A stretch of DNA of 64,000 nt from positions 18,595-82,594 of IMG/VR virus record IMGVR_UViG_3300020196_000016; one strand, written 5' to 3'. The position numbers were made by a program, and so were the translations under genes. Shown here piece by piece: positions 17,235 through 63,148 of this stretch. Numbering within the stretch: the first letter of the stretch is position 1; the number at the start of each line of letters is the position of its first letter. This DNA is from a virus. The notes below the pieces were generated by a model. That model had not been told where the DNA came from. It saw only the letters and a program-made list of their open reading frames with translations, and did no database searches.

Positions 17235-17312
17235 TGTTTTCTCTCTCTAGTTTATCGTTATCTGACTTAGATCATCGTGCGGGATTGCCCGGTGATCTTT
17301 CCGACCCGTTGC

Positions 17313-17341: not shown

Positions 17342-17378
17342 CACACACTAACTTGCTTACAGTATAAAATACAGTAAG

Positions 17379-17453
17379 TGGAGCCAACGACAGGATTTGA
17401 ACCTGTATCTCGCACATTACAAAAGTGGAGTTTTACCGTTAAACTACATTGGC
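17379..17453 (-). tRNA. tRNA-Thr(UGU), anticodon stem imperfect
   Basis: GCCAATG acceptor, loop TT-TGT-AA, GGTTCAAATCC, CCA; two mismatches in the anticodon stem. Confidence 0.75.
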
Positions 17454-44100: not shown

Positions 44101-44599
44101 ACTCTTTGAAATAAGAGTGAAAAGATTGTTTAGACCTTTCTGGTTCTGTGCGAGAAGGACGAGATGAGAACGCCGATTGAGAACACTCTTTTTAGTCTTC
44201 TTTGTCTCTTCTTCGTTTTCAACGATTGCGCCTGTGATCTCCTCGTCCTCTTTTTTGCTTTTTGTTGTTTTTTCAATTTCTTCCTTATCTTTCCGCCATT
44301 GGGCAATAGATGGATGAAAGTACATTTCACAGCCATAAATTGGCTTGAAATCCTTTTCTTCCTTTTTCATCTTCTTGGCATGAAGAACTTGATATGAAAG
44401 TCCATTCATATTTCCGTGATCGGTTAGTGCGAGAGCATCCGAACCATTAGAATATGCGAAATCCATATGTTCATCTGGATAACCCAGACCATCAAAAATG
44501 GCACCATTAGGAAAAGCCCGAGTGTGCGTGAAGTCCAACGAACTTGATACGCGAAACGAGCTTTTCCTTGATGCCTCCTTTCTCGTTAATAGGGGACAT
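41143..44599 (-). CDS. dnaE: DNA polymerase III alpha subunit, 5' end interrupted by 10 extra nt (44500-44509)
   Basis: GAGGT RBS and ATG at 44599 give ...FVGLHAHSGFS-stop; the +1 frame continues IFDGLG...LTDHG, GRGSAAG, PDIDYD, KFDVLGL, YGFNKSH. Confidence 0.93.
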
Positions 44600-44617
44600 A
44601 TATTTAACCTCTTTTGT

Positions 44618-44803
44618 TTATTTAACTACGGGAAAATATTTTGTGTTTGGATATATTTTAAACATATGATCTAATTCATAAGTCCAAAGTTTCATGCTAC
44701 GTTTATCTGCTTGTAGCACAATATACTTCTTTTTTTCTCGGCTCACAATAGTCCAAACAACGCCATTGTGGACGATAACATCCCCAACTTGATATCTGGA
44801 CAT
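44618..44803 (-). CDS. GDL...PVVK family small protein
   Basis: MSRYQVGDVI...TKYFPVVK. Confidence 0.85.
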   Translation of the reverse strand: MSRYQVGDVIVHNGVVWTIVSREKKKYIVLQADKRSMKLWTYELDHMFKIYPNTKYFPVVK

Positions 44804-45188
44804 TATACTTCGCTTTTGCCAGACCAGTCAATAGTAAGAATTTGTGTTTTGTGATTGGTCACAACAAAAAATTCTTTGTACTTTGTTTTAAACTCTTTTG
44901 CTAATTCAAAAAAACATGCTTTACTCAATTTGCTGCAATCATACTCAAAAGTATTTTTGCCTTGAGCAGCATATTTTTTTATGTAACGAGCCATATCATT
45001 AATGTATAGAGGAATATTCTTTAATTCGCTTTGACTAATTGGCTTTTCAGCTACAATAAGTGCTTGACGAGCTTTTTTTGCTGTTTCTTTGATTTTATCA
45101 AAGTCAAGATCGTCCTCCATTGTTGGAGTGCGAGCCATTAACTTTTTTTCTTCTACTGTTGCCATTTCCATAATTCCTCCAAAAGTAA

Positions 45189-46124
45189 TTACTCTTCTAA
45201 GTCGGCTTTATCCACAGCAACTGGACTCCATTCATGATATTTAAAGAACTTTGGCCTATATACTAATTTACTGTTTTCGGAACGCATAAATTCTTGATAG
45301 TTTTTCCACGAATCTATGCGCGAATACCATGCGGTTTGACCCACGTTGTTGCCCTCAAGTGTAGCACATCCGAACACCTTGTCAAGCGGGAAGGAACGAG
45401 CACTATATTGTTCTGATGCTGGAATATACTCTTGTGTTATACGTCGTGTTTGTTCATTGAATACAACATTTTTATACATTCCTGTGCCTTCACTTCTTAT
45501 AACTCTGCGAAATTTTTTAAAATCTTCTTTATCAAAGGTAAATGGTAAATATTCACCATCACGAACAGTTCTACCGTCGTGCTCCATATAAAAATTACTT
45601 GGAGAACTTATCAAAGAACGATTTTGATAGATTGAATCAAGTGAAACAATACCATATGGAAATGAGACAAAATATTTGTCTGGAACAATCCAAGAACTAA
45701 TTGTTTTTGAAATATGAAATGCACGTAACGAACCATATATAACACTCCATGCTAAACAGTCTCTACGCTCACGATCTTTTGGATGAATTGGCACATAATA
45801 TATCGATGTTTCTTTTACTTGATGTTGTGCCATTCGCTCTTTAAATCTTGATTGCAAGAGAGAACCATATTCGAAAATCCAATCACCTATACGGTCGCGT
45901 AAAATGGGCTGCATTTCACGATGAGCAACGATCCATATGCTTTCACAACCAGCATAGGTACATTGAAGGACGGCATTTTCTACTGCTGTTAAATTATCAG
46001 CAACTGGCATAAGACAATCATGCCATGGAAATTTAAAGTCAAGTTTTTGACCTGCTACTGGAATAATACCTGCGAGATGAAAAGCTGTAACGTCTTTTTT
46101 ACCATCTTGTATATCAGTCAACAT
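45189..46124 (-). CDS. Nucleotidyltransferase-like (GT-A) hypothetical protein
   Basis: LAGIIPVAG...CLMPV...AGCESIWIV resembles the N-terminus of sugar-phosphate nucleotidyltransferases. Confidence 0.5.
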   Translation of the reverse strand: MLTDIQDGKKDVTAFHLAGIIPVAGQKLDFKFPWHDCLMPVADNLTAVENAVLQCTYAGCESIWIVAHREMQPILRDRIGDWIFEYGSLLQSRFKERMAQHQVKETSIYYVPIHPKDRERRDCLAWSVIYGSLRAFHISKTISSWIVPDKYFVSFPYGIVSLDSIYQNRSLISSPSNFYMEHDGRTVRDGEYLPFTFDKEDFKKFRRVIRSEGTGMYKNVVFNEQTRRITQEYIPASEQYSARSFPLDKVFGCATLEGNNVGQTAWYSRIDSWKNYQEFMRSENSKLVYRPKFFKYHEWSPVAVDKADLEE

Positions 46125-46872
46125 AAGGGCTTCCTAGCATATCTGTAATCTTTTTCATTTGATCGCTTTTTGTTTCTTTTCTTTCAATCAAAATTTTATC
46201 TTCTTGTTCTCGTGTATCAAAAATATATTCACGCTTTAAAGTTGTTGTTTTTAATCTGTGGGTTCTACAACCTTTTTTTAATTGTTCTACTCTACCAACA
46301 ATACCATTTTTTTTCAAGACGTCTTCTGTTTTCATTCTCGCAACAACAATCCCATATTCTTCACTATTAAGTTGCGCTTGTGTAAGCGAGGAGATAGAAA
46401 CAATATCAGACATTCGTTCATTAATCATAGTATAAAAACTATTGATAAAATCTTCATTAGTTTTTATGTTATTTATTGTTTGTATATTTGATGATTGTAT
46501 ATTTTCTAATTTTATATAATCAAATACACGCAGCTTTTCTGTTGGCTGAATTTCATCGTATCTAAATATATTTTTATACTGGATTTCTACTTTATAAGCT
46601 GTTTTACCAAAAATAGTTATCTTTTTGTCTTCGTCTAAACGATAATTACCAGCTTTTAAACCTATTGGATTTAAACCAGCATATGAAAGATAATAACTTA
46701 ACTTGCTCCATATTCTTTCTTTATTGGAGCCGCGTGGATCATTGTCCAAGTGAAAAGGAATTTGAGGGTTTACCATTATTAGTGGTATTCCCTCAACATA
46801 ACTATGAATAAGTGCTTCTAATGTTCCGCCGAGAACTATTGTGTCGTATTCAAGTTTTTCTAACTTATACAA
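46114..46872 (-). CDS. Degenerate FAD-binding Rossmann-like hypothetical protein
   Basis: YDTIVLGGTLEAL N-terminus. Confidence 0.45.
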   Translation of the reverse strand: MYKLEKLEYDTIVLGGTLEALIHSYVEGIPLIMVNPQIPFHLDNDPRGSNKERIWSKLSYYLSYAGLNPIGLKAGNYRLDEDKKITIFGKTAYKVEIQYKNIFRYDEIQPTEKLRVFDYIKLENIQSSNIQTINNIKTNEDFINSFYTMINERMSDIVSISSLTQAQLNSEEYGIVVARMKTEDVLKKNGIVGRVEQLKKGCRTHRLKTTTLKREYIFDTREQEDKILIERKETKSDQMKKITDMLGSPYVD

Positions 46873-46880
46873 TCTACACC

Positions 46881-47477
46881 TTATCGTATCTTTTCAAATT
46901 TATCTTGTTTTTCTTTTTCACCAGAGAAAAATATAGCAACATTATGTAGTTTTTTTGAACTATCACTTCCTACATCATGCCATCTTTTCATAAATTCGTC
47001 AATAGAAACAATGCCGACTTTATTGTAGAGTGATGGATCTCGTATATATAAAGTTTTTTCATCGATGCCAATTAGAACAGCATAATGGCCATCTTTCCAA
47101 TCTTTTTCCCATTTTGGGCTCTTTTCATCTGACCATGCTTGAAAATTTAATATAACAGGATTTCCAGCATTAATAGATTTTTTTAATTCTGATATATCTG
47201 TATTTTCTTTAACTCTGCAGTTAAGACCATGTTTTTTTGCAACTTCTTTTATTTTTGCTAAAGAAGTGCCGTCTTGACTATTTGTGTTAAGTTCTTTTGA
47301 TAGTTCTTTTTCGTTCTTTTCATATAAATCATAAAATGATAAAATTGCAAGCAAACTTGCCGAACCACAACTATAATCGTTAAATTGGCGTATATCTGGA
47401 ACATCAAGAAGTTTTGGTTTCTTCTTTGGTTCTTTTTCTTCTAAAAATCTACGCCATTCAGTTAAAAATTCTTTCAT
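46881..47477 (-). CDS. C39-family cysteine peptidase with virion-type leader
   Basis: QFNDYSCG, DGTS, GHYAVLIG, RDPS. Confidence 0.88.
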   Translation of the reverse strand: MKEFLTEWRRFLEEKEPKKKPKLLDVPDIRQFNDYSCGSASLLAILSFYDLYEKNEKELSKELNTNSQDGTSLAKIKEVAKKHGLNCRVKENTDISELKKSINAGNPVILNFQAWSDEKSPKWEKDWKDGHYAVLIGIDEKTLYIRDPSLYNKVGIVSIDEFMKRWHDVGSDSSKKLHNVAIFFSGEKEKQDKFEKIR

Positions 47478-47480
47478 AAA

Positions 47481-47747
47481 TTAAATAGACTTTTTATTTT
47501 TATAAAGATATTTGTAATAGCCAATTATAGATAAAAGAATAAGATTAAAAACATAATTTACAATAAGAGGCAAAGAATAACGTTCAAACCATACATAAAT
47601 TATTGTAAATATTTCACCAAAAAACCATAACCAAAATAGACCATGACTAAAGCCGTCAGCATGTTTTTGTTTTAAAGTATCAATAACTTGTGGCAAAGCA
47701 CAGATAGCAAAACAAAAACTTCCTAACCAACCAATTACTTCCATCAA
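47481..47747 (-). CDS. PQ-loop / SemiSWEET-like membrane protein
   Basis: IGWLGS...ALPQV, three TM segments, PLIVNY. Confidence 0.85.
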   Translation of the reverse strand: MMEVIGWLGSFCFAICALPQVIDTLKQKHADGFSHGLFWLWFFGEIFTIIYVWFERYSLPLIVNYVFNLILLSIIGYYKYLYKNKKSI

Positions 47748-48805
47748 TAATTTACCTCAATATAATCAGTTTTACAAGGATTTCCATCGCCATAAAAAAA
47801 TTTTCTTTTTGTTGGTAAAAATATTACTGAAAACACTGTTGCACTTTCATTTTTATCTTTTGTATGCCGACAAAGACCACCTTCGCCATGAGAAGATAAA
47901 ATCTCTTTCATTTTATCAATTCGCATATCTTCTTCTAAATCTTCGCCCATGCCAATAGCTTTTTTCAATCTTTTTATTGAATCTTTTAATGACTTTCCTT
48001 CACGACCTTCTTTTGATTTTAACCAAAGAAAATGATTGGTATGAACATCAACTCCATCTTTATGATTTACTTTTTTTTCTTTTTCTGCACTACCCTCAAG
48101 TGTTATTATTTTACCGGTTTCATCGCTAACAACATTAGCAAATGCACTTGCACGTTTTGGATGAAGCAATAAAGATTCTGCCTCTTTTAATGTTTTAGAA
48201 AATAAAGCTTCCATATAGAGCATCATTCTTGGAATACCTGGTGTTGTATCGTTTGCGTCGACTTGACAACCAGAAAAAACAAGACCAACATTGTTTACAC
48301 CAATTGAAGGTACACCTCTAGTAAAAGAAGCATATATTGTTGGTTTATTTTTTATTTCTAATTTTATTAATCTTGAACCATCTCCTGGTCTTTCATCATT
48401 ATTGTGACCCATAATAACGTTATCACCGTCTTTAACAAAGACATCGGTGCAACCTTCGTCTTTTAATTTAGTTTTATCTTTTTCTTTTGCAAACCACAAT
48501 TCTTCATACCACATACCAAATGCTTCATCTGGTTTTATTTCAGCACCTTCTGCTAAACCTTCAATAAATTCATATGTAATCGGAGTATGCTGTTTAGAAA
48601 GTTTTTTACCTTTTTCCATCCAATCACTAAAATCTTCTATTAGTTTTTCAATTTTATAAGCTTTAACTGCATTGTTTATCTGTTTTTTAAGTATTTTACC
48701 AATAGAAGAGCCAGCTTCATGTGCTGAAGCTGATTTAATTTCTTTTAATGGTCTTGTTTTACCTTCTTTTAAGAATTTACGCCATTCAGTTATAATTTCT
48801 TTCAT
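47744..48805 (-). CDS. C45-family Ntn-hydrolase peptidase with virion-type leader
   Basis: EGCT autocleavage site, GHNND, GVNNVGL, HTNHF, LSSH...LCRH. Confidence 0.88.
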   Translation of the reverse strand: MKEIITEWRKFLKEGKTRPLKEIKSASAHEAGSSIGKILKKQINNAVKAYKIEKLIEDFSDWMEKGKKLSKQHTPITYEFIEGLAEGAEIKPDEAFGMWYEELWFAKEKDKTKLKDEGCTDVFVKDGDNVIMGHNNDERPGDGSRLIKLEIKNKPTIYASFTRGVPSIGVNNVGLVFSGCQVDANDTTPGIPRMMLYMEALFSKTLKEAESLLLHPKRASAFANVVSDETGKIITLEGSAEKEKKVNHKDGVDVHTNHFLWLKSKEGREGKSLKDSIKRLKKAIGMGEDLEEDMRIDKMKEILSSHGEGGLCRHTKDKNESATVFSVIFLPTKRKFFYGDGNPCKTDYIEVNY

Positions 48806-48813
48806 AACTCTAA

Positions 48814-49437
48814 TTAGAGTCCAAAAGCAGCTAATGTATGCTCAAATTCTCCACATTCTTTTACAAGTTTCAACATTTCTTGTGCGATTTCGCGAATTTC
48901 TACTTGTGCTGCCTCATCATTACGCAGACGCTGGAAATGTACAAATGAACGCATATTGAACATTACATCAAATGTAAGCTGTGTTGCATATGGAAGATAA
49001 AAACGAGCACTTTCTTTTGCTCGCTTACGACCAAGTGTTGGTGTTAGACGAGTGAGAGCAGCGTGATATTTTTCTAAACTTTGTATACAATGATTTTGTA
49101 ATAGAAGCTGTTCGTGATTTGGCCAATCATCGGGAACATAATATTTATCGTCTTTTAGTTCTTTATATCTCGCACTCTCACAGTTGATAGAAACACCAAT
49201 ACGGTGTTTCAAAAAATGAATATGGCTTGCGATTTCGGCTGTTACGAGAAAGTGAATTGATGACTTTTCAAATGGTGTTTCATGACCGTTTTCAGCAAGC
49301 ATTTTCAATAGTGCTGGAATACGGTTTTGTTTTTCTTCTGTTAATTCACGAGAAGTGGACGTCCAGGCCGACATTGCATGAGAACTGTCGCTTCCATAAG
49401 TTCCAATAAGTTCAATGGTGTTTGTTCTATTTATCAT
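48814..49437 (-). CDS. thyX: Flavin-dependent thymidylate synthase
   Basis: HETPFE, KHR...SARY, ESARFYLP, NMRS, AQVEIR. Confidence 0.93.
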   Translation of the reverse strand: MINRTNTIELIGTYGSDSSHAMSAWTSTSRELTEEKQNRIPALLKMLAENGHETPFEKSSIHFLVTAEIASHIHFLKHRIGVSINCESARYKELKDDKYYVPDDWPNHEQLLLQNHCIQSLEKYHAALTRLTPTLGRKRAKESARFYLPYATQLTFDVMFNMRSFVHFQRLRNDEAAQVEIREIAQEMLKLVKECGEFEHTLAAFGL

Positions 49438-49716
49438 TTTTTCCTCTTATTTTCTAGGACTTTCATGGCTTCTTCCATACTATAAAGCCAATTCATTCTA
49501 TAGTGAGCTTCTCCCATAGCAATACTATAGGCAACATAGAACTCATCTTTATGTGTCTTTCTATTTTTAATATAAATTCGCAAGGTATCATATGGTACTC
49601 TTAAATACCAACGATAACGCCATAGTTTAACATACCACTTTTGATCTTGGAAGCGATTACTCATTCTTGCAGTAAGACCACCATGTGGTGGAGATGAAAC
49701 TTTATTTATGAGTTCT

Positions 49717-50301
49717 TTAAACTTTTTTCTTTGTTTTGGAGTCATATTCAGAGTATTCCCAAAATATTTGTTCATTTCTTTTATAAAATTTTAAATTATC
49801 TGTATTTTGTTTATCAATAAAATGTTTATCTTCTAAAGTAAAATAATTGTTTGGAAGAAGAGCAAATTGACCATTATCCAAATTTATTAATGATAGCGGT
49901 TTGTGTTCTTGTGGATATCTAGAATATCCATCCGACCAATCAATTACGATTCCGGTGTGCCTTCCCGGCACATCGCATTTAAAAAGATTGACTTTTAAAC
50001 CGTCAAGAAACTGTAAATGATTTGAAGTTATATTTTCTCCCATACCTCCCCATGGTTCTAGGATATTTTTATCTTCATTGTTTTCTACTTTTTCTTTTGT
50101 TGATAAAGCAAATAATGGTAATCCAGTCCAATGTGCCCCTGTCTCTAGCACAACATGTGTTAACATGTGTTGTCCTGGTTTAGAATAAAAAGAATGTAAA
50201 ATACATTCAGTTTTGCCGCTTGGCATTTTTTCACCAAGATAACAATTATCTACATAACAATAAAAATGATAAGGTAAACTTACATGGTGACTTATTTTCA
50301 T
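49717..50301 (-). CDS. Hypothetical phage protein
   Basis: LETGA.W.GLP..AL, QEHK...L.L.NGQFALLPNN motifs. Confidence 0.7.
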   Translation of the reverse strand: MKISHHVSLPYHFYCYVDNCYLGEKMPSGKTECILHSFYSKPGQHMLTHVVLETGAHWTGLPLFALSTKEKVENNEDKNILEPWGGMGENITSNHLQFLDGLKVNLFKCDVPGRHTGIVIDWSDGYSRYPQEHKPLSLINLDNGQFALLPNNYFTLEDKHFIDKQNTDNLKFYKRNEQIFWEYSEYDSKTKKKV

Positions 50302-50543
50302 TTCTTTCTCACCGGCATATACTTCCAGGTTCCATCACCGATCCACTTATTCATCTCTTCCAAAGTATAATAATCACCTGCAGCTGGATTCGGGTTTAGC
50401 CAAAATACTCCATACATTGTTCTATATTTGATATCTTTAGAGTATTCTTTATCTGTATTGATATCATATATATATCCAATATTTTCTACGCCTTTTTCGC
50501 TGTAGTCAAGTACTAAGTCCCCTAAATTTGGTTTCTTTATCAT
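50298..50543 (-). CDS. GDL...PV family small protein
   Basis: PNLGDLV...WKYMPVRKK. Confidence 0.8.
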   Translation of the reverse strand: MIKKPNLGDLVLDYSEKGVENIGYIYDINTDKEYSKDIKYRTMYGVFWLNPNPAAGDYYTLEEMNKWIGDGTWKYMPVRKK

Positions 50544-50819
50544 ATTTATTCTGCAGTTCTTTTGCTAAGGATAAGAGATTTTTTATTACCTCTGCTCCTT
50601 GTGTTGTTATGTCTCCATCTTGAAGCAGATGAGAACAAGCAACATCAACAACGTACAAGAACTCTTTTAAAGAGTCAAGATCTTTTTTGAGGTTTTCGTT
50701 TTCTTCAAGAAGAAAGTTATACATTACACTCATCCGGCGGGCCTCTTTTCAAGTTTCCAAACGATATAACTTCCCATATTATTATCTCCTTAAAAAGCAC
50801 GATCCGTGGTGCTCTGGCG

Positions 50820-50848
50820 AGCATACCACGGACCAAGCGAGTGATCAA
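50820..50848 (-). promoter_or_regulatory. Sigma70-type promoter overlapping an inverted repeat
   Basis: TTGATC-17bp-TATGCT; TCCGTGGT...ACCACGGA repeat spans the -10. Confidence 0.7.
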
Positions 50849-50979
50849 ACGAGCAGAAGGAGTTAGTTTATTTCTTTCCTTCTTTCTTAGCTTTTTTCTT
50901 TTCTTGTTTTTCTTTTGTTGTTAGTTTTTGTTTATTGTTTTTATTAGTTTTTTCTTGACCTTTACCCATATATTTCTCC

Positions 50980-51786
50980 TTATAAATCGTAAGCACCTCT
51001 CCAATGACAAACAACCAAAGTTGCTTCATCTATTCTTGATCCACCACATTTTTCATTATCAATTATTTTATTAAGAAATAGATGATCTTCATTTAAACCT
51101 TCTAATCTTTGATAATTTTGGTCTAATATCATTGTAGAGTCTGTCCAAGTTGTTTTTATATTTTTTCTATGAGATATAGAAGAAGAAGAACATCTTATAC
51201 GGTTTTTTTCAAAATTTTCTTTAAAGAATAAATCTTTTATTCCATAAGTTAATAAATTTACTGATTCTTTGTTCTTTATTTTTTCTTCTATTTGTTTTTT
51301 TCTTTCTTCTAGATTTTCAGACCACTTTAAAACTGTTGAATGTACGTATCTAATTGGATTGTTTATCCACAATAAACTTTGTGGTGCTTTTTCCCAAGCA
51401 CCATTTAATACCATTAAATGATTTGGTAATATTAAATCATCAGTATCAAGATAACAAATTATATCACCAGTTGCTAAATAACATCCAACACCACGAGGAA
51501 AACCTCTAAAATTATAAGTTGTTTTTTTATCATCTTTTTCAATGTTGTTCGTTAGTTTTTCTTCTTTTTTATCCAAATAAACAAATCTTATTAATGGATT
51601 GTCTTTATAGAAAGAATCATATAATTCTTTTGTTATATTACAACCATCAGAAACTATTATAAGCTCTTTATCTTCGTGAATTTGAGATAAAAAACTACTA
51701 ACAGATCGTATAAATTTTTCTTTAGGTCTACTACGCGCACCTGGATAATCGCCTAAATAAGATTGCATAACTACTGATATTTTCAT
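50980..51786 (-). CDS. Glycosyltransferase family 2
   Basis: ISVVM, ELIIVSDGC, YLDTDD, ED. Confidence 0.85.
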   Translation of the reverse strand: MKISVVMQSYLGDYPGARSRPKEKFIRSVSSFLSQIHEDKELIIVSDGCNITKELYDSFYKDNPLIRFVYLDKKEEKLTNNIEKDDKKTTYNFRGFPRGVGCYLATGDIICYLDTDDLILPNHLMVLNGAWEKAPQSLLWINNPIRYVHSTVLKWSENLEERKKQIEEKIKNKESVNLLTYGIKDLFFKENFEKNRIRCSSSSISHRKNIKTTWTDSTMILDQNYQRLEGLNEDHLFLNKIIDNEKCGGSRIDEATLVVCHWRGAYDL

Positions 51787-51793
51787 ATATACC

Positions 51794-52960: not shown

Positions 52961-52977
52961 AAAAAATCTTACTTGCC

Positions 52978-53445
52978 TTAATTAGTTTTAAAATATAGTT
53001 CAGCTTCGGATTCTCGACGTTTAGTTAAACCACGCAATGCTTTTCCAGCAGCTTTATTCCATTTTAAAAATTCATCGCGTATTGTTGGATCAAGTGGATT
53101 AGTATTTACTTTTTTAAGTAATGTAGATGATTTTAATGCTCCTACTCCAACATTATAAGCAAAACAAACAAGAGCGTCAAATTGGCTTTGCGTTATATCA
53201 TCTCTGGTATATGTATCAACATGCTTTTCAAATGTTGTTAATACATGTAATAATAATTGTGTCGATCGTTCTTCGGTTATTGCTGGATCGTCTATTTTTA
53301 CTTTTGCCCCATATTCATAAAAGGTTGAACCATATCCGATTGTTGGAACATTTGCGGGACAAAGATATGGTTGAGCGCAGAAGCCTTCAAACTTCTTTAT
53401 AAGATCAAGAGCAGATTTTGATACTTTTGTTATTTTTTGAGTCAT
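52978..53445 (-). CDS. Lysozyme (GH24) endolysin
   Basis: IKKFEG...YLCPANVPTIGYG, QFDALV, GLTKRR..E. Confidence 0.95.
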   Translation of the reverse strand: MTQKITKVSKSALDLIKKFEGFCAQPYLCPANVPTIGYGSTFYEYGAKVKIDDPAITEERSTQLLLHVLTTFEKHVDTYTRDDITQSQFDALVCFAYNVGVGALKSSTLLKKVNTNPLDPTIRDEFLKWNKAAGKALRGLTKRRESEAELYFKTN

Positions 53446-53559
53446 ATGTTTTATTTCTATGTCTCCTTTTATAAATATGGCGAGAAACAGTAATAATATT
53501 AATTTTTCAAAAAAGAAACCTACCTTTACAGATAGGTTTATATCATACAGAAGGTTTTG

Positions 53560-54388: not shown

Positions 54389-54620
54389 TTATGTTTTTTG
54401 CTTGCTGCTTCTGCTATAGCAAGTATTCCTATGCTGATAATCCACACTGGTATACTTGACAAAAGACTTGCCATCAATATGTATAATCCAAGATGTTCCA
54501 TATATAATATATACTCTCAGTCCCAAAATCTGTCAATAGTTTCTAAAATACCAATAAAATCATGCAACGGATCACCACTACCATCTGTGTTAACTGAAAT
54601 CTGTGTTTTAATTTTATTAT

Positions 54621-55196: not shown

Positions 55197-55579
55197 TATT
55201 TTTCCTCCGTAATCAATTCAAAATGAGCTATTTTTCCTTTTACAAAATAAGCAGAATATTCAATATACAAATCAAGATCTGTATCCCAATGATAAAAACG
55301 AACTTCTCCAGTATGGTTAAGTTTTACTGGTTGTTTTGGTACTTGTTTTAGGGCACCAATCCAACTAAGTTTATCCCATGATGGGTCTTTATAGTATGGT
55401 CGTTCTTCTTCTGGGACAATATCCCAATTAAAAAAATGATGAACTAACTCACCATCTTTTGTAATGACATATTTGTCAAGACAATTGACCAAACTTTTTG
55501 TTTGAAATACCTCATCTTGATACTTCGCATGTTTCTCAGGAAGAGGATATTCGCAAGTTAGTTCATCATACATTCCCAT
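55196..55579 (-). CDS. Conserved hypothetical protein (MGMYD type)
   Basis: MGMYD...FQTKSL...Y.ITKDG.L...TGEVRFY. Confidence 0.75.
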   Translation of the reverse strand: MGMYDELTCEYPLPEKHAKYQDEVFQTKSLVNCLDKYVITKDGELVHHFFNWDIVPEEERPYYKDPSWDKLSWIGALKQVPKQPVKLNHTGEVRFYHWDTDLDLYIEYSAYFVKGKIAHFELITEEK

Positions 55580-55582
55580 ATT

Positions 55583-55858
55583 TTAATCCCTCAAAAGACC
55601 AATAACAAAATTTTCTTTACAAGTCAAAAAAGTATTTTCACCAAACTTTGCTTCTTCAACCATATTACCTTCAACAAGCACAATCTGTCCGACAGAAACA
55701 GATAATACACAGTCATTTGCCTTATCAAGAACACGATAGGCAACATTATCTGGTCGTTTCGTTGAACCAGCAAAAAATAGTTCTTCTTTCTTTTCTTCTT
55801 CTTTTTTTACAACTTCCAATACAAGTCGTTTATTTCGCGGTTCCAATTTCATCCTCAT
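55583..55858 (-). CDS. groS: GroES-like co-chaperonin
   Basis: LEPRNKRLVLE...VSVGQIVLV...KENFVIG. Confidence 0.75.
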   Translation of the reverse strand: MRMKLEPRNKRLVLEVVKKEEEKKEELFFAGSTKRPDNVAYRVLDKANDCVLSVSVGQIVLVEGNMVEEAKFGENTFLTCKENFVIGLLRD

Positions 55859-56136
55859 ACTCCAACTTTAAGCTTGTTCTTGATTACACTGATAAATTCC
55901 TCAAAATCTTCAAGATCCTCGCCCTTCTGTGCCATACGATAAGCACGAAGCAGCTTACTCTGATCTTCTCGTGAAAGAAAGCTATTATCAGCGTAATGCT
56001 TTTTTAGTGCAAGCTTGTGTTCACGATAAGGCTCAATTGCCTGCTCAATCTCATTAAGAGTTTTGAGATAATTTACAATATGTTCTTCACGGGTCAATTT
56101 TTTATCGTTTTGCTCAAGTGTCTTTAGGTCAGTCAT
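55855..56136 (-). CDS. Small helical protein, possibly DNA-binding
   Basis: GGAG RBS; own promoter TTGACA-16bp-TAAACT at 56182-56209. Confidence 0.6.
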   Translation of the reverse strand: MTDLKTLEQNDKKLTREEHIVNYLKTLNEIEQAIEPYREHKLALKKHYADNSFLSREDQSKLLRAYRMAQKGEDLEDFEEFISVIKNKLKVGV

Positions 56137-56205
56137 TATATTCTCCCTAATAGAAAGCGCCCCGATCAAGGGACGCCTCCAAGTTTAGCAGGTTTTCAAT
56201 CGGTG

Positions 56206-58275
56206 TCAAGTCACGACACAAGCACCACCTACACAAGCAGCTTCACCAGATAAATTTGTATAATCTTGATCTTCTCTAATCAGATCAATATCAACACTTA
56301 CTAATTGAGACATTCTTTTATTATATTCTGCTTCTCCAATATCTTCAAATGGCGCCTGGTGATAAGTGTGGTCGCTATGAGGTAGAAGTGAAATAGCAGC
56401 ATAGCTATCTTTATTCTTCCACATCCATTCAGTAACTTGTGCCCATTCATGATTACGAACTGAAACAGTAATAGAAACGTTGTGTGTGTTATCGCCTCTA
56501 CGATGACCACCTTGAATCCAATCAAGATATACTTTCTTCATCCGTTCAAGTTGTTGAATTGCTGTTTCTTTTCTTGTAATAGATCCTTCGGGTGCTCGCT
56601 GTGGCAATGTTAGAATTGCATTGTTCTTGTTAAATGTATCATCTTCAAGAAGTTCTGGATGAAACATTTTTAGATAACCATACATTGTTTCTGTCTTTAA
56701 AAGACGCATACGACGAAGATAAAACTCATTGTGCCATGCATGAATACCAGATGAACAGCCAAGAACACAAGAAGTTGTTCCACTTGGTTTTACAGTTGTT
56801 ACACGGGCAGCTTTATTGATACCAAGAATTTTAGCCATACGTTCATTTTCTTTTGTTGCCGCTTCTGCTGCCGCAGCCATATCAAGAGCCAATACTTTAC
56901 CACTTGCAATACCAGTCATACCAATACCAAGTAGTGCTTCTTTTTCTGTTGTTTTACGCCAAATATCACGCAAATAATGAAAATCAGTATATGAAGCTTG
57001 AAGCGTTCCAATGAAAGCAGCAGCTTTTACACGATTTTCATAATCAGCTTGATCTTGTATATCGCTTGCGTTGATTTCACAAAGATTACAGAATTGATTT
57101 GTTCGCAGGCCGATTTCACCACATGGATTTGTGCCCCAATCTGGGTTATTTGTCCAGAATATACCTGGTTCACCAGCTTTGCTTTCTTCGGTAATTTTCA
57201 AGATACGTTCAAAGTCAGCTTTTTTGCGCATTTTATGACGAACAAGAACAACACTATTATTTGCACGACCACGCTGTTCTTGAACATAAAACCACGGAAC
57301 AATACCGTTATCTAAATAGAATGGAATATCATGCTCACCAACATCAGCCTCAACTGTGCGGACTCCATAGGCAGGGTCATTGTAGGCTATTTTAACGCGT
57401 TTATAAGTGGTGTTTGTTGCTTCATCAACAGTACGAATTTCTAGTTTAACTTCATTACCATATTGATCATGTTTTATTAGCGTAACAGATTCATGTGATA
57501 CAAGTTTAAAATTACTCTTGCAAGTAAGCATTGATTCATCATCAATATCAAATAGAGAAATCATTGCTGAACGACGAATACCACCAGCAAGAACAGCGTC
57601 TGCCAAATGACAAAGAATATCGTGAATCTGAACTGAGCGGAGTTGTTCTCCATTTTCTACACTATCAAGAATACCACGAACATTCTCTAATGCACGCTTT
57701 AATGGTTCTGAACCTGGAGCTTTACCACCACCGGTTTTAATTGGTGTGCCTTTTGCGCGAATTGAAGAATAATCAAAACGGACTTTTGGTGAATTTGGCT
57801 GCATGTATGACTTCATCAATACCTTTACAGCATCAGCCCAACCTTCGATGCTGTCACCAACAAGAAATTTCTTTTCTCCCCGTGTTGGTTTTGTTACTGG
57901 TGGTAGTTTTTCAATGTGTTTTTTCTGTACCGAATAACCTACTCCACAACCTGCAAGCAAGAGGAACATAGTTTCACTAAAACTATGAATATTATCAATA
58001 TGCTGAAATGAGCAATTGTAAATACGTGAATTGTTTACTTCAATTGCTTTTCCACCAAACTGCATGGAACGCATTGAAGGAAGAACTTTTTTATCATACA
58101 CAAATTTGTATGCTTCTTCAATCTGATCTTTTAGATCAGGAAATTTAGCAACGTGCATTGCTTTATTACGATCAACGAGTTCAACCCAATTTTCACGACG
58201 ACCAAGTTTCTCGTCAAATTTAGCATATCGTGAAAAAACCGTTACGTCTGATAATATTTTGCTTGCTTTATCCAT
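56206..58275 (-). CDS. nrdJ: Class II (B12-dependent) ribonucleotide reductase
   Basis: LPSMR, YNC, GCGVG, GGIRRSA, TNPCGEI, FCNL, VKPSGT, C-terminal CVGGAC. Confidence 0.92.
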   Translation of the reverse strand: MDKASKILSDVTVFSRYAKFDEKLGRRENWVELVDRNKAMHVAKFPDLKDQIEEAYKFVYDKKVLPSMRSMQFGGKAIEVNNSRIYNCSFQHIDNIHSFSETMFLLLAGCGVGYSVQKKHIEKLPPVTKPTRGEKKFLVGDSIEGWADAVKVLMKSYMQPNSPKVRFDYSSIRAKGTPIKTGGGKAPGSEPLKRALENVRGILDSVENGEQLRSVQIHDILCHLADAVLAGGIRRSAMISLFDIDDESMLTCKSNFKLVSHESVTLIKHDQYGNEVKLEIRTVDEATNTTYKRVKIAYNDPAYGVRTVEADVGEHDIPFYLDNGIVPWFYVQEQRGRANNSVVLVRHKMRKKADFERILKITEESKAGEPGIFWTNNPDWGTNPCGEIGLRTNQFCNLCEINASDIQDQADYENRVKAAAFIGTLQASYTDFHYLRDIWRKTTEKEALLGIGMTGIASGKVLALDMAAAAEAATKENERMAKILGINKAARVTTVKPSGTTSCVLGCSSGIHAWHNEFYLRRMRLLKTETMYGYLKMFHPELLEDDTFNKNNAILTLPQRAPEGSITRKETAIQQLERMKKVYLDWIQGGHRRGDNTHNVSITVSVRNHEWAQVTEWMWKNKDSYAAISLLPHSDHTYHQAPFEDIGEAEYNKRMSQLVSVDIDLIREDQDYTNLSGEAACVGGACVVT

Positions 58276-58279
58276 GTTA

Positions 58280-59668
58280 TTATTCTCCCTTTAATTCTTT
58301 CTGTTCTTTTCTGTGTTTGGCGTATCTTTCTTTTAATTTCTTGGCTTGATCTGCTGCAGCGTTTTTATTGATTTCATCAACAGTTTCATTTGTTGGTTCC
58401 ATCACTTTAATTGCTACATTTGATGTATCCATGAAAATTGGTAAAACTACTCCATCTGGACCATTTCTATTTTTTGCTATAAAAATACGACCGGTATTGT
58501 TTTGTTTGTGAGTTGCAGTTCGGGAAAGACTGAAAATAAAATCAGCAACGAAACATTTATTGAAAGCTTCACTAATACTTTCCATAGTTACTACTTCTGC
58601 GTTCAGACCTGAACGGTTTGTTTGTGAAGCTGTCCAAAGAGGACACTTGAACTCTGCTGCAATTCCACGTAATTCTTCATAGATGCCTTCAAGTTCATTT
58701 CTTTTCTCTCTTTGCGCGGTTACAGGTTTTAACAAATCACCATAATCAACAACAACCATATCAACTTTAAAGTCTCGTTGTTCCAGTTTTTTAAGATGAT
58801 TTCTTAATGTCTCCGTTGATACCGATTTCGTCGGATATTCTTTAATTATAAGCTTGCCGGGAATCTCTCTCACTTTTTCAAAAACTTCTTCTTTTGCGAG
58901 ATTTAGACCTTTTAATGGAAAGCCAGTCAAACAACTATCAAAACGGCGCCCAATAACTGTATCTCCAAGTTCAAGAGTATAATAAACAACATTTCGTCCT
59001 TGTTTCATCGCTTGTGCAGCAAGATGAACCAATGCCATACTTTTACCAGCACCGGTTGGAGCAACAACAACACCTAATTCTCCTTTTCCATGACCGCCTT
59101 GAATGAAATTATCTATAACATCCCATCCTGTTGAAATTGGATCACGGGCTTTTAATTTATATCGCTCTTCAAAGTGTTTCATGAAGTCATAACCATGCTC
59201 ATTATCAAGTCCAAGTTTAAGAGCACCGTTAATAATCTTTGAAACTTCGTCAAATGAAGAGTTTTCCATCAAGCCAACACTTTTTAACATTGCCTCTTTT
59301 AATTTTTGTTTTTTACAGAAATCAAGACTTTTATCTTTTACATATTCATCTTCAATATCTTCAATTGTGCCGGCAAGAACACGAGCAAAGAAATCACGAA
59401 CCTGTTTCTGCATCACAGGTGTTTGTTTTTCAAGTTCTGAACGCAGAATTGTTTCTACGGTTGAACGGTTTGGAAAACAACCATAAGTTGTATTATATTT
59501 AAATACATAATCTACAAACACTTGTAGATATTTTAATTCAAAAAAGCTTATATCCAATACTTCACTAATCTGTGAAGCAAATACAGAGTCATCCAATATT
59601 AATTGGACTAATTTCTCTTGAAACTCTTTTCCAAAAGAGCCAAGTGATGGTTCATTTTTTATAGCCAT
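58280..59668 (-). CDS. Replicative DnaB-like helicase
   Basis: APTGAGKS, YYTLE, VDYGDL, TASQTNR, AKNRNG. Confidence 0.93.
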   Translation of the reverse strand: MAIKNEPSLGSFGKEFQEKLVQLILDDSVFASQISEVLDISFFELKYLQVFVDYVFKYNTTYGCFPNRSTVETILRSELEKQTPVMQKQVRDFFARVLAGTIEDIEDEYVKDKSLDFCKKQKLKEAMLKSVGLMENSSFDEVSKIINGALKLGLDNEHGYDFMKHFEERYKLKARDPISTGWDVIDNFIQGGHGKGELGVVVAPTGAGKSMALVHLAAQAMKQGRNVVYYTLELGDTVIGRRFDSCLTGFPLKGLNLAKEEVFEKVREIPGKLIIKEYPTKSVSTETLRNHLKKLEQRDFKVDMVVVDYGDLLKPVTAQREKRNELEGIYEELRGIAAEFKCPLWTASQTNRSGLNAEVVTMESISEAFNKCFVADFIFSLSRTATHKQNNTGRIFIAKNRNGPDGVVLPIFMDTSNVAIKVMEPTNETVDEINKNAAADQAKKLKERYAKHRKEQKELKGE

Positions 59669-59688
59669 ACGCTCCTCAGAGGAAAGTC

Positions 59689-59717
59689 AGCATACTTGAT
59701 CCAGACACGGTCGTCAA
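59689..59717 (-). promoter_or_regulatory. Sigma70-type promoter of the helicase gene
   Basis: TTGACG-17bp-TATGCT. Confidence 0.7.
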
Positions 59718-60682
59718 GGTGCTGACTTGTAATCACTAATTATACGGTTAAATGTTGTAAACAACTCATTTAAGTTTAAATCCGCAAAACCATCAAGAAT
59801 AGAACATTTCAAGAAGTCTGTTTTATTAAATTCTGGTTGGAAATTTTCTAAAACATAATCAGTTTTATTCTGTGCTTGAAGCGACATATTTGGTTGATAC
59901 AGCTGCATAATTTGATAGTTTAGATACACTTTATCTTTGTCTGATAGGATATTTTCAAAGATTTTTCCATCTCCCTTATTCACTTCACATTTCTCCAAAA
60001 TATCGTCAACTGTATATCGCTCTTGTTCGGCAAGAATAGGAAATTTTTTTGCTAAACTTGTTAAACCAACACCCCTAACACCTTCAAGATTATCACTTTT
60101 ATCGCCCGCAATTGATCGGGCAAGAGCAAAGTTATTTGGGTGAATACTAAATTCTTCAACAACACGATTTTTATTTAGTATTTCATCTTGAACTGGACGC
60201 ATAAGTATTGTTTTATCATCCAGCAACTGAATAAAATCTTTATCACTGGATACAATCACTTTTACGTAATCTTTGTGATCTTTATGTTGAACGACATAGG
60301 AAATAAGATCATCTGCTTCAACATTTTCTTCCATAAGCTGAACTACCGGACATAGATTTAAATATTCAAATGTTTTTAGTTGCTGCCAGATACGATTTTC
60401 AAATTCTTGTTTTTCATCCAAGACCTTTACATTTCTGTTGAGGCGTAGTGGATTTCTACCTTCTTTGTAATCCTTGTGTAAGGCTTTCTTTTTACGGCTT
60501 CCGCCAGGACCATCCCAAGCAAAAATAATTTTGTCTGGTTTTGTATCTCGGCTTATCTTTTGCAGAGATTTAAAACTTCCAACAATACCGCCGATTGGTT
60601 GTCCCTGTTTAGAAATAGAAGGATTTACTACATAAGAACGAATGAACAAGTTCAATGCATCAACAATTAATATTTTTTTCAT
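59714..60682 (-). CDS. 5'-3' exonuclease (PolI N-domain / T4 RNase H-like)
   Basis: IVDALN, AWDG, YKEGR, EADD, SSDKDF, GDKSDN..GV.GVG. Confidence 0.94.
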   Translation of the reverse strand: MKKILIVDALNLFIRSYVVNPSISKQGQPIGGIVGSFKSLQKISRDTKPDKIIFAWDGPGGSRKKKALHKDYKEGRNPLRLNRNVKVLDEKQEFENRIWQQLKTFEYLNLCPVVQLMEENVEADDLISYVVQHKDHKDYVKVIVSSDKDFIQLLDDKTILMRPVQDEILNKNRVVEEFSIHPNNFALARSIAGDKSDNLEGVRGVGLTSLAKKFPILAEQERYTVDDILEKCEVNKGDGKIFENILSDKDKVYLNYQIMQLYQPNMSLQAQNKTDYVLENFQPEFNKTDFLKCSILDGFADLNLNELFTTFNRIISDYKSAP

Positions 60683-60685
60683 AAA

Positions 60686-61564
60686 TTATATAAAACTCTT
60701 TAAAAATTCAAAAGACATTCTTTTTCGATATTTTCCATTTTTCATTAAAGATTTAAAATTAGTAAGATAAAAATCTTTTGTCTTATTTCTCCACTCAGTA
60801 ATATTTTTATTAATTAATTTACAATCTAAATCATTTTCTGAATAAAATAAAGAATAATTTCTAGATGTATGTTTTAAAAATTTATCTCTATTAAAATTAT
60901 TATCTAAAGGTCTAATGTTTATATTTTCTACAGATGTTTTGTCAATTGCTGAAAAAATATAATTACCGTAAGAAACGTTGAATTTAATTTTTGTACTTCC
61001 TTTATTAGATTCTACCTTTTCTATCTCTTCTCCATTTACGTAAATTTTATGTTCTGTTTCGTATGGAACAAAATATGCAACTCCGACAGGTGAATCGGTA
61101 TCGGAAAAAAGCTTATAATCTAATTTATCCCATGCTAATAAGCGGTTTCGAAACATTTTTGTTCCATAATATGTCGACGGAATTATAGCTGAAACATAAT
61201 CGCAATTTTCAAGCATTAACTCTAAGCAATCTAAATATAAATCTTCATTTTTAAGTGATAAATTTTCACCTTTTCTTTTCATAGCATTTTTTGCTAAATA
61301 AGGAGGATTAGTTATACAAATTTTAAAATTTTTTGGAAAATTAGAAATAGTATCTCTTTGAATTATATCATTTCTACCTGGAATTATATCATAAGCTTTC
61401 CATTTATGATTAGAGAAAAAATTAGTTATATTACCACTTCCAGCAAAAGGCTCTAAAATATCTTCTCCTTTTGGGAGCATTTCATTCCAAATTTCAAAGG
61501 CGTTACCCTTAAATGGATTTATTATTGTGTAATATTGTCCTAGTATCTGCTTCTGACTGAGCAT
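60686..61564 (-). CDS. Amino (N6/N4) DNA methyltransferase
   Basis: GQYYT, LEPFAGSG, TNPPY. Confidence 0.85.
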   Translation of the reverse strand: MLSQKQILGQYYTIINPFKGNAFEIWNEMLPKGEDILEPFAGSGNITNFFSNHKWKAYDIIPGRNDIIQRDTISNFPKNFKICITNPPYLAKNAMKRKGENLSLKNEDLYLDCLELMLENCDYVSAIIPSTYYGTKMFRNRLLAWDKLDYKLFSDTDSPVGVAYFVPYETEHKIYVNGEEIEKVESNKGSTKIKFNVSYGNYIFSAIDKTSVENINIRPLDNNFNRDKFLKHTSRNYSLFYSENDLDCKLINKNITEWRNKTKDFYLTNFKSLMKNGKYRKRMSFEFLKSFI

Positions 61565-62261
61565 ATTTAATTAGCCTTTCTTGAAATTCCACGTGGTTAA
61601 CTATCCAGATATTATCTTTTTGTTTTCGAAGGAGATTATTTTTTTTATCTTCATCTCCGTCTACAAGAACAACATAAAGTTTTTCTTTTGGCTCATTTGT
61701 TGCCCAATTTATAAAATCATCTGCTTCTTTTTCAACATTATCTTGATGGCCTCCAATTCCAACAACAACTTTCGCAAAAATATATCCCAAAATTTGCTTT
61801 TCATCATACCGACTTTTAATTAAACCGTCAATAGTTTTTAAATAAACATCGCTATTTTTAAGTTTCTTTTCGGTATCCGCAGCATTTATGACGCCTCCGG
61901 AACGCAAAGGTCTAAGTGCTTGCTTACCTCTTGTTGGAATTGCTTCTACTGTGATTTTATCTTTTAAAAATTCACCTATACCATTTATAATTTTTTTTTC
62001 TTCTATGCAGCCTTGACGAGATGCGTTTATACATATAACACAAGATACTGTGTAAGCATATCCTTCGTTTTCTTTGCAGATTTTTAGAAGTGAATCTTCA
62101 GATAAGTTGTTCGGATGATATTTTAAATATCTTTCTAAAGATTTTTTATTATAAGATTGTAATTGTTTAAAAGACTTGATGTTTTTAAATTGTTTAAAAA
62201 CTAAATTTATATTATTTTTATTATTATTTTCACGTTCATTTATTGCATCATAAGTAAACAT
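61509..62261 (-). CDS. Putative type II restriction endonuclease
   Basis: KTIDG...FAK...GGHQDNV..E...VLVDG; overlaps the methyltransferase gene. Confidence 0.6.
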   Translation of the reverse strand: MFTYDAINERENNNKNNINLVFKQFKNIKSFKQLQSYNKKSLERYLKYHPNNLSEDSLLKICKENEGYAYTVSCVICINASRQGCIEEKKIINGIGEFLKDKITVEAIPTRGKQALRPLRSGGVINAADTEKKLKNSDVYLKTIDGLIKSRYDEKQILGYIFAKVVVGIGGHQDNVEKEADDFINWATNEPKEKLYVVLVDGDEDKKNNLLRKQKDNIWIVNHVEFQERLIKYAQSEADTRTILHNNKSI

Positions 62262-62284
62262 ATATTTCCTATAATTTTAAATAT

Positions 62285-62311
62285 AAAAATCCCCACTTTG
62301 CAGTGGGGATC
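62285..62311 (-). terminator. Intrinsic terminator
   Basis: ATCCCCACT-GCAA-AGTGGGGAT followed by a T tract. Confidence 0.85.
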
Positions 62312-62321
62312 ATATCATACT

Positions 62322-62417
62322 TCATTTCTTTTTGCGATTCTTTTTACGAGCTTTTCTTTTAGCAGAACCCTGTTTTCTGCGTCCTTTACGGGGTCTGTTT
62401 TTTGCGGGCCACGGCAT
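62322..62417 (-). CDS. 31-aa highly basic peptide
   Basis: MPWPAKNRPRKGRRKQGSAKRKARKKNRKKK; AGGA RBS; terminator follows. Confidence 0.65.
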   Translation of the reverse strand: MPWPAKNRPRKGRRKQGSAKRKARKKNRKKK

Positions 62418-62623
62418 ACATTATCCTACCTTTCTTTGTGATTAAATCCAATTTCTACAACAAAATCTGGTTTACCAGAACAATCCATAAACTTTACACT
62501 ATTTTTATCAAGAACTATTCCTTTTTGATAACACCACATTTTTAGTGCTTCAAATACTTCGTCTTGATTAAAAGTATAAAGACCTTCACTTGTGTTTTTA
62601 TCAAACTTGCTATTCATATGTTC

Positions 62624-63119
62624 CTATGCTGCAATAAACTCATTTACAATAAACTTACCGTGGTGTGCATCACCATATCGTTCAAGGAAATGGTTTGTAA
62701 TATTACTTGGACGACCGACAAGACCGATCATATCACGATTCTTAAGAGTGTTCACTTCTCCCAGATCATCAACATATACAACTCGGGAAACACCTGCGTT
62801 CTTTAGGGCATGCTGACAGAGCGGACAAGGCTTTCCGTTCTTGTTTTGACGAGCATACGGGCACGAAGTGTTATTAAAACGATAAATATAAATTTTGCTA
62901 CCACTTGCTCGTTCTCCCATCTTGCTCAACAGATCAATTTCAGCATGCATAGAACACTTGAACACACTCTTGTTTCGTGAATAACGACGCTTATTGACGC
63001 CGAAGTTAATAATCTTGCCACCCTTGACACCAAAGGCAACAATCTGATGCTGGAGAGTATCATCCCGAAATTGGGATGCAATATCTTCAGCGAGGTACTA
63101 CAAAATCAAGATACTTCAT
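62624..63119 (-). CDS. Zn-dependent cytidine/dCMP deaminase-like protein, 5' end interrupted by 10 extra nt (63095-63104)
   Basis: HAE and PCPLC motifs; AGGAG RBS and ATG at 63119; the main frame is open only from 63097. Confidence 0.85.
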
Positions 63120-63148
63120 GGTATCAGGCTCCTATGTTGGTTGAACCA

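Follow-up and report, generated by a model that had tools for sequence, protein, structure and literature searches.

Two putative recoding sites in one lake virus genome: a ten-nucleotide coding gap in dnaE and a conserved +1 frame break in a deaminase gene

Analyses of a 64,000-nucleotide stretch of viral DNA (the window, bases 18595-82594 of the 82.6-kb IMG/VR virus record IMGVR_UViG_3300020196_000016, record handle G000) indicated that two genes, dnaE and a deaminase gene, are each broken shortly after a well-formed start. Both lie on the minus strand, as do all their features described below, both need non-standard decoding to give a full-length protein, and both need a net change of +1 within the first 30 codons. 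We conclude that the two breaks are unrelated recoding sites that would depend on two different rare decoding tricks. We consider it somewhat more probable than its opposite that the window contains two independent programmed recoding sites, a dnaE module with a 10-nt hop and a deaminase +1 shift. The initial annotation of the sequence had attributed both breaks to one new system with matching 10-nt inserts; the observation was confirmed in part, and its interpretation was likewise supported only in part.

The dnaE gene begins at an ATG at 44599, with the Shine-Dalgarno sequence AAGAGG (44608..44613, read directly) 8 nt before it. Translation from this ATG gives a 0-frame head of 30 codons (44510..44599; MSPINEKGGIK...HAHSGFS; MSPINEKGGIKEKLVSRIKFVGLHAHSGFS), the last of which, UCC (44512-44510), is the candidate take-off codon. 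The next codon is a UAA stop (44509-44507), which opens a 10-nt coding gap, TAATGGTGCC (44500..44509), whose last three bases, GCC (44502-44500), form the candidate landing triplet. The remainder of the gene after the TAA comprises 1118 codons in the +1 frame with no other stop; the body read from AUU 44499 (41143..44499) contains the PHP, DNA_pol3_alpha, finger and HHH_6 domains identified with Pfam. In addition, the head contains a 9-codon N-terminal extension absent from unbroken relatives, so that the gap alleles have 23 residues before the HxH of the PHP motif versus mostly 11-16 in 129 distinct unbroken relatives.

Comparison with other viruses indicated that the dnaE break is a clean insertion. 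A scan of viral contigs found 530 dnaE relatives, 80 of which were kept, and in 78 of these the junction could be read, the region being missing from L008 and L029. All but one of these 78 were unbroken, the exception being L005, which carries TAATGGTGCC. The unbroken, 91%-identical relative L003 reads GGC TTT TCT ATT TTT GAT GG, which is the window sequence minus its ten bases, and BLASTN gave a single clean 10-nt gap, an indel against the unbroken G002. Metagenome relatives were unbroken in all 80 cases among the matches listed. Altogether, 157 loci gave 129 distinct unbroken dnaE sequences, all of which read the HAHSGFS|IFDG-type motif in frame. The dnaE genes of two gut phage records that were examined were also unbroken.

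Scans with exact patterns identified the window version of the insert in two other contigs, G003 (the same as L005) and G004, and a second version, TAATGGAACC, in four (L293, L296, L298 and L299). Contigs from all four other lake-water runs examined bridged the insert with no gaps, and one strain in those runs carries the version TAATGGTACC, whose sole listed change within the gap is at the eighth base. The presence of the same insert in other viral contigs and its bridging in all four lake runs led us to reject an assembly artefact, the error that the initial annotation had proposed to check. The lake-run evidence consists of contigs, in which rare gap-free forms could go unseen. In two lake runs (X13 and X15) there was an unbroken-type dnaE start (MTERKMS...), with contigs that diverge at window 44616-44645. 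Gap-bearing and gap-free dnaE alleles thus co-occur, as contigs of the same lake samples hold both.

The gap was uniform wherever it was found. A UAA lay directly 3' of UCC in all eight gap-bearing sequences read (the window and seven viral contigs), and the length was 10 nt in all alleles. A flank-anchored scan for other gap lengths returned 11 matches, of which four were in dnaE and all were of 10 nt, while a looser scan returned at least 115 matches, with one of the newly examined ones in a dnaE context. A scan with the 19-mer of the hairpin 5' arm described below matched seven unrelated genes and two known contigs.

The start of dnaE is predicted to fold into a long hairpin of 29 bp, in which the 10-nt insert is the 3' end of the 3' arm. 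The 5' arm, GGCAUCAAGGAAAAGCUCG (44557..44575, open reading frame (ORF) nt 25-43), lies within the N-terminal extension and makes 19 pairs with the 3' arm, which consists of CGGGCUUUUCCU, an AA bulge and UGGUGCC (44500..44520, ORF nt 80-100) and ends at the last base of the gap. Two inner helices (44526..44552, ORF nt 48-74) end 13 nt before UCC. The insert is accordingly not at a hairpin apex, where the initial annotation had placed it. The window gave fold z-scores of -4.6 and -5.6 and G003 gave -3.2 to -3.6, whereas that of an unbroken allele was -0.9. All 29 pairs were formed in each of four distinct alleles, compared with 29-51% in slid controls. Three pairs were compensatory, namely 27-98 (C-G to U-A), 28-97 (A-U to U-A) and 49-73 (C-G to A-U), the last being C-G in three alleles and A-U in G003. 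Pairs 27-98 and 28-97 link the gap with the extension, and both gap positions that differ between the versions are thus compensated. The compensation costs an Ile-to-Ser change in the extension, which argues that selection acts on the structure of the RNA (or DNA) rather than on the peptide that the extension encodes. An intrinsic terminator composed of this hairpin and a U run was rejected, as G003 has no U run.

The gap-bearing module has a history of its own. The window dnaE body was closest to that of the unbroken G002 (91% protein identity), whereas its first 30 codons were closest to those of G003 (85% nucleotide identity, versus 66% to G002). DnaE of the L293 type was 62% identical to that of the window over 1081-1121 residues, yet the two modules were identical at 79 of 88 nt (ORF nt 16-103). 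At least three sequence versions of the gap module were found on DnaE backbones that are 62-82% identical. Such similarity of the 5' module on a 62%-identical DnaE indicated movement of the module from one backbone to another.

Three of the four contigs with TAATGGAACC (L296, L298 and L299) contained a full nuclease cassette, arranged in the order old dnaE 5' remnant, small ORF, Phage_endo_I-like nuclease and gap-bearing module. The resident 5' remnant, MTERVKSVIPFVNLHGHSTFSI, ends at TCT ATT AGGTGA; the small ORF begins MKY... and has Pro/Arg-rich repeats; and the nuclease (267 residues; PF05367, 32.6 bits against a cut-off of 29.1) is encoded by a gene that ends 4 nt before the dnaE ATG. The nuclease ORF was present in all four contigs, including L293, in which the remnant pattern had no match. 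The junction TCT ATT [A/T]GGTGA is common to cassettes with a GIY-YIG (L004) and a LAGLIDADG (L006, L007) nuclease, and those of L004, whose nuclease is GIY-YIG/NUMOD3, and of L006 and L007 have the same left junction and small ORF as the L296 type. In L004, L006 and L007 the new dnaE 5' end is unbroken but recoded. The cassette junction is 3-4 nt from the position of the 10-nt gap. One cassette layout was therefore seen with three unrelated nuclease families at the same junction (L004:1774-2954, L006:1722-2960 and L298:4380-5604). Together, these data identify the dnaE gap as a lineage-restricted, mobile, nuclease-cassette-linked 10-nt insert.

In the window, G003 and G004, the 1.5 kb of upstream sequence that was read before dnaE contained no nuclease gene, and tblastn with the LAGLIDADG (L006) and GIY-YIG (L004) nucleases gave no match adjoining dnaE. 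A GIY-YIG homologue 40% identical to the L004 cassette nuclease is encoded at window 189-872 on the minus strand, some 44 kb away from dnaE. In G004 (L122:9836-12422, IMGVR_UViG_3300042305_001857), the gap-bearing dnaE is further split by an insertion of 1160 bp at nt 2143. Within this insertion lie an intein N-part, an ORF for a Phage_endo_I-like nuclease, and an intein C-part (...VVHN|C) that is joined to the finger domain. The arrangement looks like a split intein with a free-standing nuclease.

From the anatomy, conservation, covariation and cassette context described above, we infer a scheme for how the gene may be read and what the gap may do. The first 100 nt of dnaE are a mobile 5' module composed of the 9-codon extension, PHP motif I and the UAA-led gap. 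In relatives, the module is the right end of a homing-nuclease cassette seated at the S-I junction of the PHP motif; in the window, there is no nuclease gene and the module alone is left. The gap may split the target site of the nuclease and so protect the carrier. A ribosome would stall after 30 codons, its P site occupied by UCC and its A site by UAA, at which point the 5' arm would already be outside the ribosome and the 3' arm would comprise the take-off region and the gap. We speculate that the hairpin re-zips behind the ribosome, pair by pair, and drives the mRNA forward; the title of a preprint proposes such a forward driver for T4. The peptidyl-tRNA-Ser would then re-pair at GCC (ACC in other alleles) through two of three positions, and decoding would resume at AUU, giving HAHSGFS-IFDG as in the unbroken relatives.

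This scheme resembles that of T4 gene 60 and MobA in several respects. In both cases a coding gap absent from homologues has a stop right after the take-off codon, interrupts a conserved metal-binding motif of an essential replication enzyme, and is carried by a homing-nuclease cassette that also brings an extension of the N-terminus; in both, the gap can outlast the nuclease, and nucleases of different families occur at the same site. The T4 insert blocks cleavage by MobA, according to preprint 10.1101/2022.08.31.505936. The two systems also differ. The gap is of 50 nt in T4 and of 10 nt in dnaE, and the dnaE gap has no internal take-off stem-loop but instead a 5' hairpin of which the gap forms the end of the 3' arm. 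In dnaE the first base differs between the take-off and landing triplets, and there is no mini-Shine-Dalgarno 5-6 nt before the landing triplet, only a GG 1 nt before it. The gene is an unsplit dnaE here and a topoisomerase gene split in two there, and the nucleases are Phage_endo_I-like, LAGLIDADG and GIY-YIG here and HNH (MobA) there.

The gap length is shared with the phiHau3 terminase gene, which has two inserts of exactly 10 nt with flanks that are contiguous in relatives (PMC10732093). That account also describes a slow-to-decode codon at the 5' end of the insert (UUA, or UAA in the E. coli test, as in dnaE), predicted RNA structures around the site and a net change of +1. In the same account, phiHau3 differs in being proposed as a sensor of a rare host tRNA with no link to a nuclease cassette, whereas the dnaE gap pairs with the added N-terminal extension. 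Short mobile inserts bypassed by ribosomes, with imperfectly matched codons tolerated, are also a feature of the byps of Magnusiomyces capitatus, as cited in the T4 and phiHau3 papers; they differ in being mitochondrial, in occurring in many genes and in not being reported with a nuclease cassette. The anatomy of the dnaE site matches the logic of T4 gene 60/MobA and the 10-nt gaps of phiHau3, and for this reason a hop is favored. The comparison with these two systems in the initial annotation was apt for dnaE; the single new system with matching inserts that it proposed was unsupported. The byps of M. capitatus are longer than the dnaE gap.

Several observations weigh against the hop. UCC at take-off and GCC or ACC at landing agree at two of three positions, the first being mismatched. 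The gap is 10 nt in every allele, a length compatible with a +1 shift, and the +1 frame through it is open in all three insert versions, whose changes read in that frame as one synonymous and one Ala-to-Thr. UAAU is a strong terminator in E. coli. At take-off the 3' arm is inside the ribosome, which keeps the pulling model conjectural. The covariation of the hairpin comes from four distinct sequences, and the G-to-A change of the lake strain has no listed compensating change. No nuclease gene was seen beside dnaE in the window, G003 or G004, and immunity would therefore be a past function there. Decoding at both sites is predicted here from DNA sequence.

The closest and strongest rival is a +1 frameshift at UCC-UAA-U (or UUU-U), which would add N-G-A or N-G-T inside PHP motif I, with the hairpin as stimulator. 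Its appeal is that, in the open +1 frame, the versions differ by a synonymous change (GGU to GGA) and an Ala-to-Thr change (GCC to ACC). Stop-dependent +1 sites are known, with CUU-UGA-C in prfB and UCC-UGA-U in antizyme. The dnaE site likewise has UCC followed by a stop in the A site, and the authors of PMC10732093 state that a +1 shift in phiHau3 is not excludable by sequence alone. The spacing from HxH to D, however, is 6-7 residues in every relative printed (judged by eye, not programmatically) and would become 9 after a +1 shift, which speaks for the hop. In addition, the final base of the gap is also the exact end of the hairpin's 3' arm, the Ser tRNA would re-pair on CCU no better than on GCC, and the one UAA-bearing 10-nt gap that has been tested, that of phiHau3 g6/7 with UAA for UUA, was bypassed in E. 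coli as determined by mass spectrometry (PMC10732093). We therefore favor the hop from UCC to GCC/ACC and consider the +1 shift less likely, while regarding it as a serious contender.

It is also conceivable that the gap-bearing dnaE is not recoded at all and is either a dead allele or used as a truncated or two-piece polymerase. The UAA right after codon 30 would fit, and split genes are a known result of homing-nuclease insertion (preprint 10.1101/2022.08.31.505936). Set against this, the 1118-codon body has remained free of other stops and dN/dS between the gap-bearing dnaE genes of G000 and G003 was 0.10 at a dS of 1.28; the module has been kept in at least three versions, on backbones that share 62-82% identity; changes in the gap and in the hairpin go together; and the first in-frame AUG comes after the HxH...DG motif and has no Shine-Dalgarno. 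We consider loss of the full-length product very improbable. Re-initiation after the UAA was rejected, as neither the AUG within the gap nor the AUG or UUG that comes next is in the right frame. The wider proposal, in which gap and hairpin together make up a self-contained anti-homing immunity device that outlives unrelated nucleases and works by a hop with no matched codons, alongside a deaminase shift that breaks the usual rules, is offered tentatively, as a possibility to which we would give somewhat less than even weight.

A possible template for the dnaE insert, CTAATGGTTC, was present at 44441..44450 as a 9/10 copy of the insert-spanning 10-mer CTAATGGTGC (44510-44501), which lies 60 nt upstream of the copy. 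This downstream copy hints at a templated origin of the insert; 0.006 such matches are expected within 150 nt on either side, a figure obtained for a match that was noticed after the fact.

The deaminase break was of a different type. An AGGAG Shine-Dalgarno (63129..63133), kept in relatives, precedes an ATG at 63119, from which a 0-frame head of 10 codons, MKYLDFVVPR, runs to a TGA at 63089-63087 (63087..63119 with the stop). The enzyme, with its HAE...PCPLC zinc motifs, is encoded in the +1 frame (62624..63097; PF00383, 30.6 bits against a cut-off of 25). That frame is closed upstream by a TAG (63100-63098). The break was shared by all 23 sequences for which DNA was available, comprising the window, all 20 viral relatives (63-88% identical), L220 and L283. 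L283 (CAJBRY010000167.1, 2.9 kb) was binned in a metagenome-assembled genome labelled Geobacteraceae and carries the phage-type frameshifted deaminase; it is probably a misbinned phage contig. In all 23 sequences there was a UAG in the +1 frame, followed by GCT GA(A/G) with an invariant GCT as the Ala codon, and a 0-frame UGA at codon 11.

The length of the head indicated that the deaminase has one extra base and not ten. Six unbroken homologues (160-167 residues, 51-59% identical) begin M-x-[YF]-x-x-[LFY]-[VAS]-x-[ILV]-A-E, with eight residues before [ILV]AE in five of the proteins and nine in the other. The window head likewise has eight residues, MKYLDFVV, and LAE follows in the +1 frame, whereas removal of 10 nt would leave five residues and delete homologous codons. 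The family has 51 database members; of the 11 examined, six were full-length proteins, while the remaining 45 of the 51 have listed lengths of no more than 152 residues.

The probable +1 shift site is UUUGUAG (63098..63104), in which GUA is followed by G, with UAG in the +1 frame. This is the only conserved stretch in the shift region, occurring as TTTGTAG in 20 of the 23 sequences, TGTGTAG in two and TTTCTAG in one. In 22 of the 23, codon 9 encodes L, I or F when read in the +1 frame (N in L220), while in the 0 frame it was P, D, V, S, H or Q. As codon 9 is conserved in the +1 frame only, the shift would occur on or just after UUU-GUA-G. The shift codons are GUA or CUA, followed by G, and the A-site codons vary (GUA, GGA, GGG, GAA). 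Transcriptional slippage at the T run was rejected, as the loss of one U puts the UAG in frame.

A stem-loop 3' of the site (63049..63091), with an outer stem GCUG...CAGC and an inner stem CAUCCC/GGGAUG, was suggested by folding and covariation and begins, at the GCUG, 4-7 nt past the shift site. Across the alignment, 82% of cells were paired versus 25-50% when the structure was slid, and four pairs had double changes. The covariation score of 0.141 (versus 0.070) was reached by none of 500 shuffles, and synonymous positions co-vary as TCC/CGG, TCA/CGT and TCT/CGA. RNAalifold alone kept only the 4-bp outer stem. Separately, the start codon lies in or near the loop of a small hairpin (window 63105-63135) that may control initiation; its arms differ compensatorily, by eye, between sequence types (GAUAC/GUAUC, GACGAGUA/UAUUCGUC, GGUAU/AUACC and GAGAUAA/UUAUCUU).

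Based on these comparisons, we assign the deaminase break as a conserved 1-nt +1 frameshift, as predicted from sequence. Translation would begin at AUG 63119, run through MKYLDFV(V) and move into the +1 frame on UUU-GUA-G with no tRNA re-pairing, probably aided by the 3' stem-loop, and ribosomes that do not shift would stop at the UGA after 10 codons. Some features do not sit easily with this assignment. UUU-GUA-G offers no re-pairing (the Val tRNA has no +1 pairing) and places neither a stop nor a rare codon in the A site, GUA being used at 16.9 per 1000. The unbroken homologues were compared as proteins, and the stem-loop was taken from one aligned sequence, which inflates the contrast with the slid control.

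The lack of a slippery site also lends itself to an explanation without frameshifting, in which the 10-codon ORF is a regulatory leader and the enzyme is made from a non-canonical start or as a truncated product from GTG 62965. The hairpin at the start codon, with its by-eye compensatory differences between types, would suit such a leader. We find this very improbable: the +1 frame contains no ATG, GTG or TTG for 44 codons, the candidate near-cognate codons are unconserved, the 0-frame head is homologous to the N-terminus of the unbroken homologues, and a start at GTG 62965 would lose the first helix and strands, whereas the Pfam profile covers the protein from residue 2. The proposed deaminase frameshift is like the stop-dependent +1 sites in its short 0-frame product, its conserved nearby stop and frame transition, and its predicted flanking RNA structure. 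It differs from them in having no A-site stop and no re-pairing potential, and from prfB in having no Shine-Dalgarno-like stimulator at a prfB-like distance. No literature on programmed frameshifting in a phage dCMP deaminase was found by title or abstract, and a term search of review PMC5009743, in the part available, returned no recoding of a phage deaminase or dnaE and only a -1 case in a Bacillus cytidine deaminase.

These findings left little room for the single shared system of the initial annotation, in which matching 10-nt inserts would be removed from the two genes, either through cutting and ligation of the RNA or through excision of the DNA. What the two sites have in common is the early net +1 break noted at the outset and the consequent need for non-standard decoding. 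At dnaE the break is indeed a clean 10-nt insertion relative to a 91%-identical unbroken allele, whereas the deaminase has 1 extra nt and not 10, and lies between the start-codon hairpin and the 3' stem-loop and not at a hairpin apex. The proposed consensus YTWRTRGTRCC matched only its two founding sites and is at chance level (at least two matches in 11 of 100 shuffles), and it was unkept in deaminase relatives, whose sites, such as ..GTAGGAGA.., break it. No contig across the four lake runs was without the dnaE insert (contigs only), and searches of the 82.6 kb, which CheckV estimates to be 46% of the complete genome, with RNA_ligase and RtcB profiles found neither family. We regard a single shared mechanism as the least probable of the explanations considered, and highly improbable in itself.

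Natural programmed bypass has been shown in very few systems, namely the T4 gene 60 family, the yeast mitochondrial byps and, in a test system, phiHau3. If the dnaE hop is true, phages would have invented programmed bypass a second time, independently and in minimal form. The dnaE module, at 100 nt, with natural versions that have compensatory changes and a clear nuclease-cassette context, would be a compact, testable model for how an upstream hairpin can drive a ribosome forward and for how a selfish nuclease can shield its carrier while leaving a conserved enzyme motif undamaged. The deaminase would add a deeply conserved +1 frameshift with an unexplained shift sequence. Gene finders mis-call both genes.

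The record is 35% G+C. Megablast gave no match to cultured relatives of the window, and the best tblastn matches among GenBank phages had 30-36% identity for the deaminase and 30-32% for DnaE. The dnaE start region, whole or in part, was listed in 24 public runs, none of them RNA runs; at least half of the region was present in 17, which are labelled as lake water metagenomes.

Of 69 ORFs of at least 120 codons in the whole record, some of which may not be genes, 35 ended in TGA, 29 in TAA and five in TAG; TGA as the commonest stop is unusual at 35% G+C. Stop-codon reassignment was rejected on the basis of this use of all three stops and because long ORFs stay open when read with table 11. Four tRNA genes (Ile-tat, Leu-caa, Lys-ttt and Thr-tgt) lie in a cluster at window 14082-17453; these were the only tRNAs found and their loops were all normal, and odd tRNAs were therefore rejected as a cause. 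A search for further headless minus-strand ORFs in the 82.6 kb returned none beyond dnaE and the deaminase, a candidate at 52978-53559 being only an open intergenic stretch and not a headless gene. Similarly, among out-of-frame indels between the genome and four related contigs, the sole clean one was the dnaE 10-nt indel. A recurrent 5-nt indel near window 40775 (G000:59369) was an intergenic stop/start junction variant and not a frame break; the junction varies between TGGTAATG, a stop/start overlap, and TGGTGATAAGATG in relatives, and the downstream product begins MLLEYAVVHDNVFPP.

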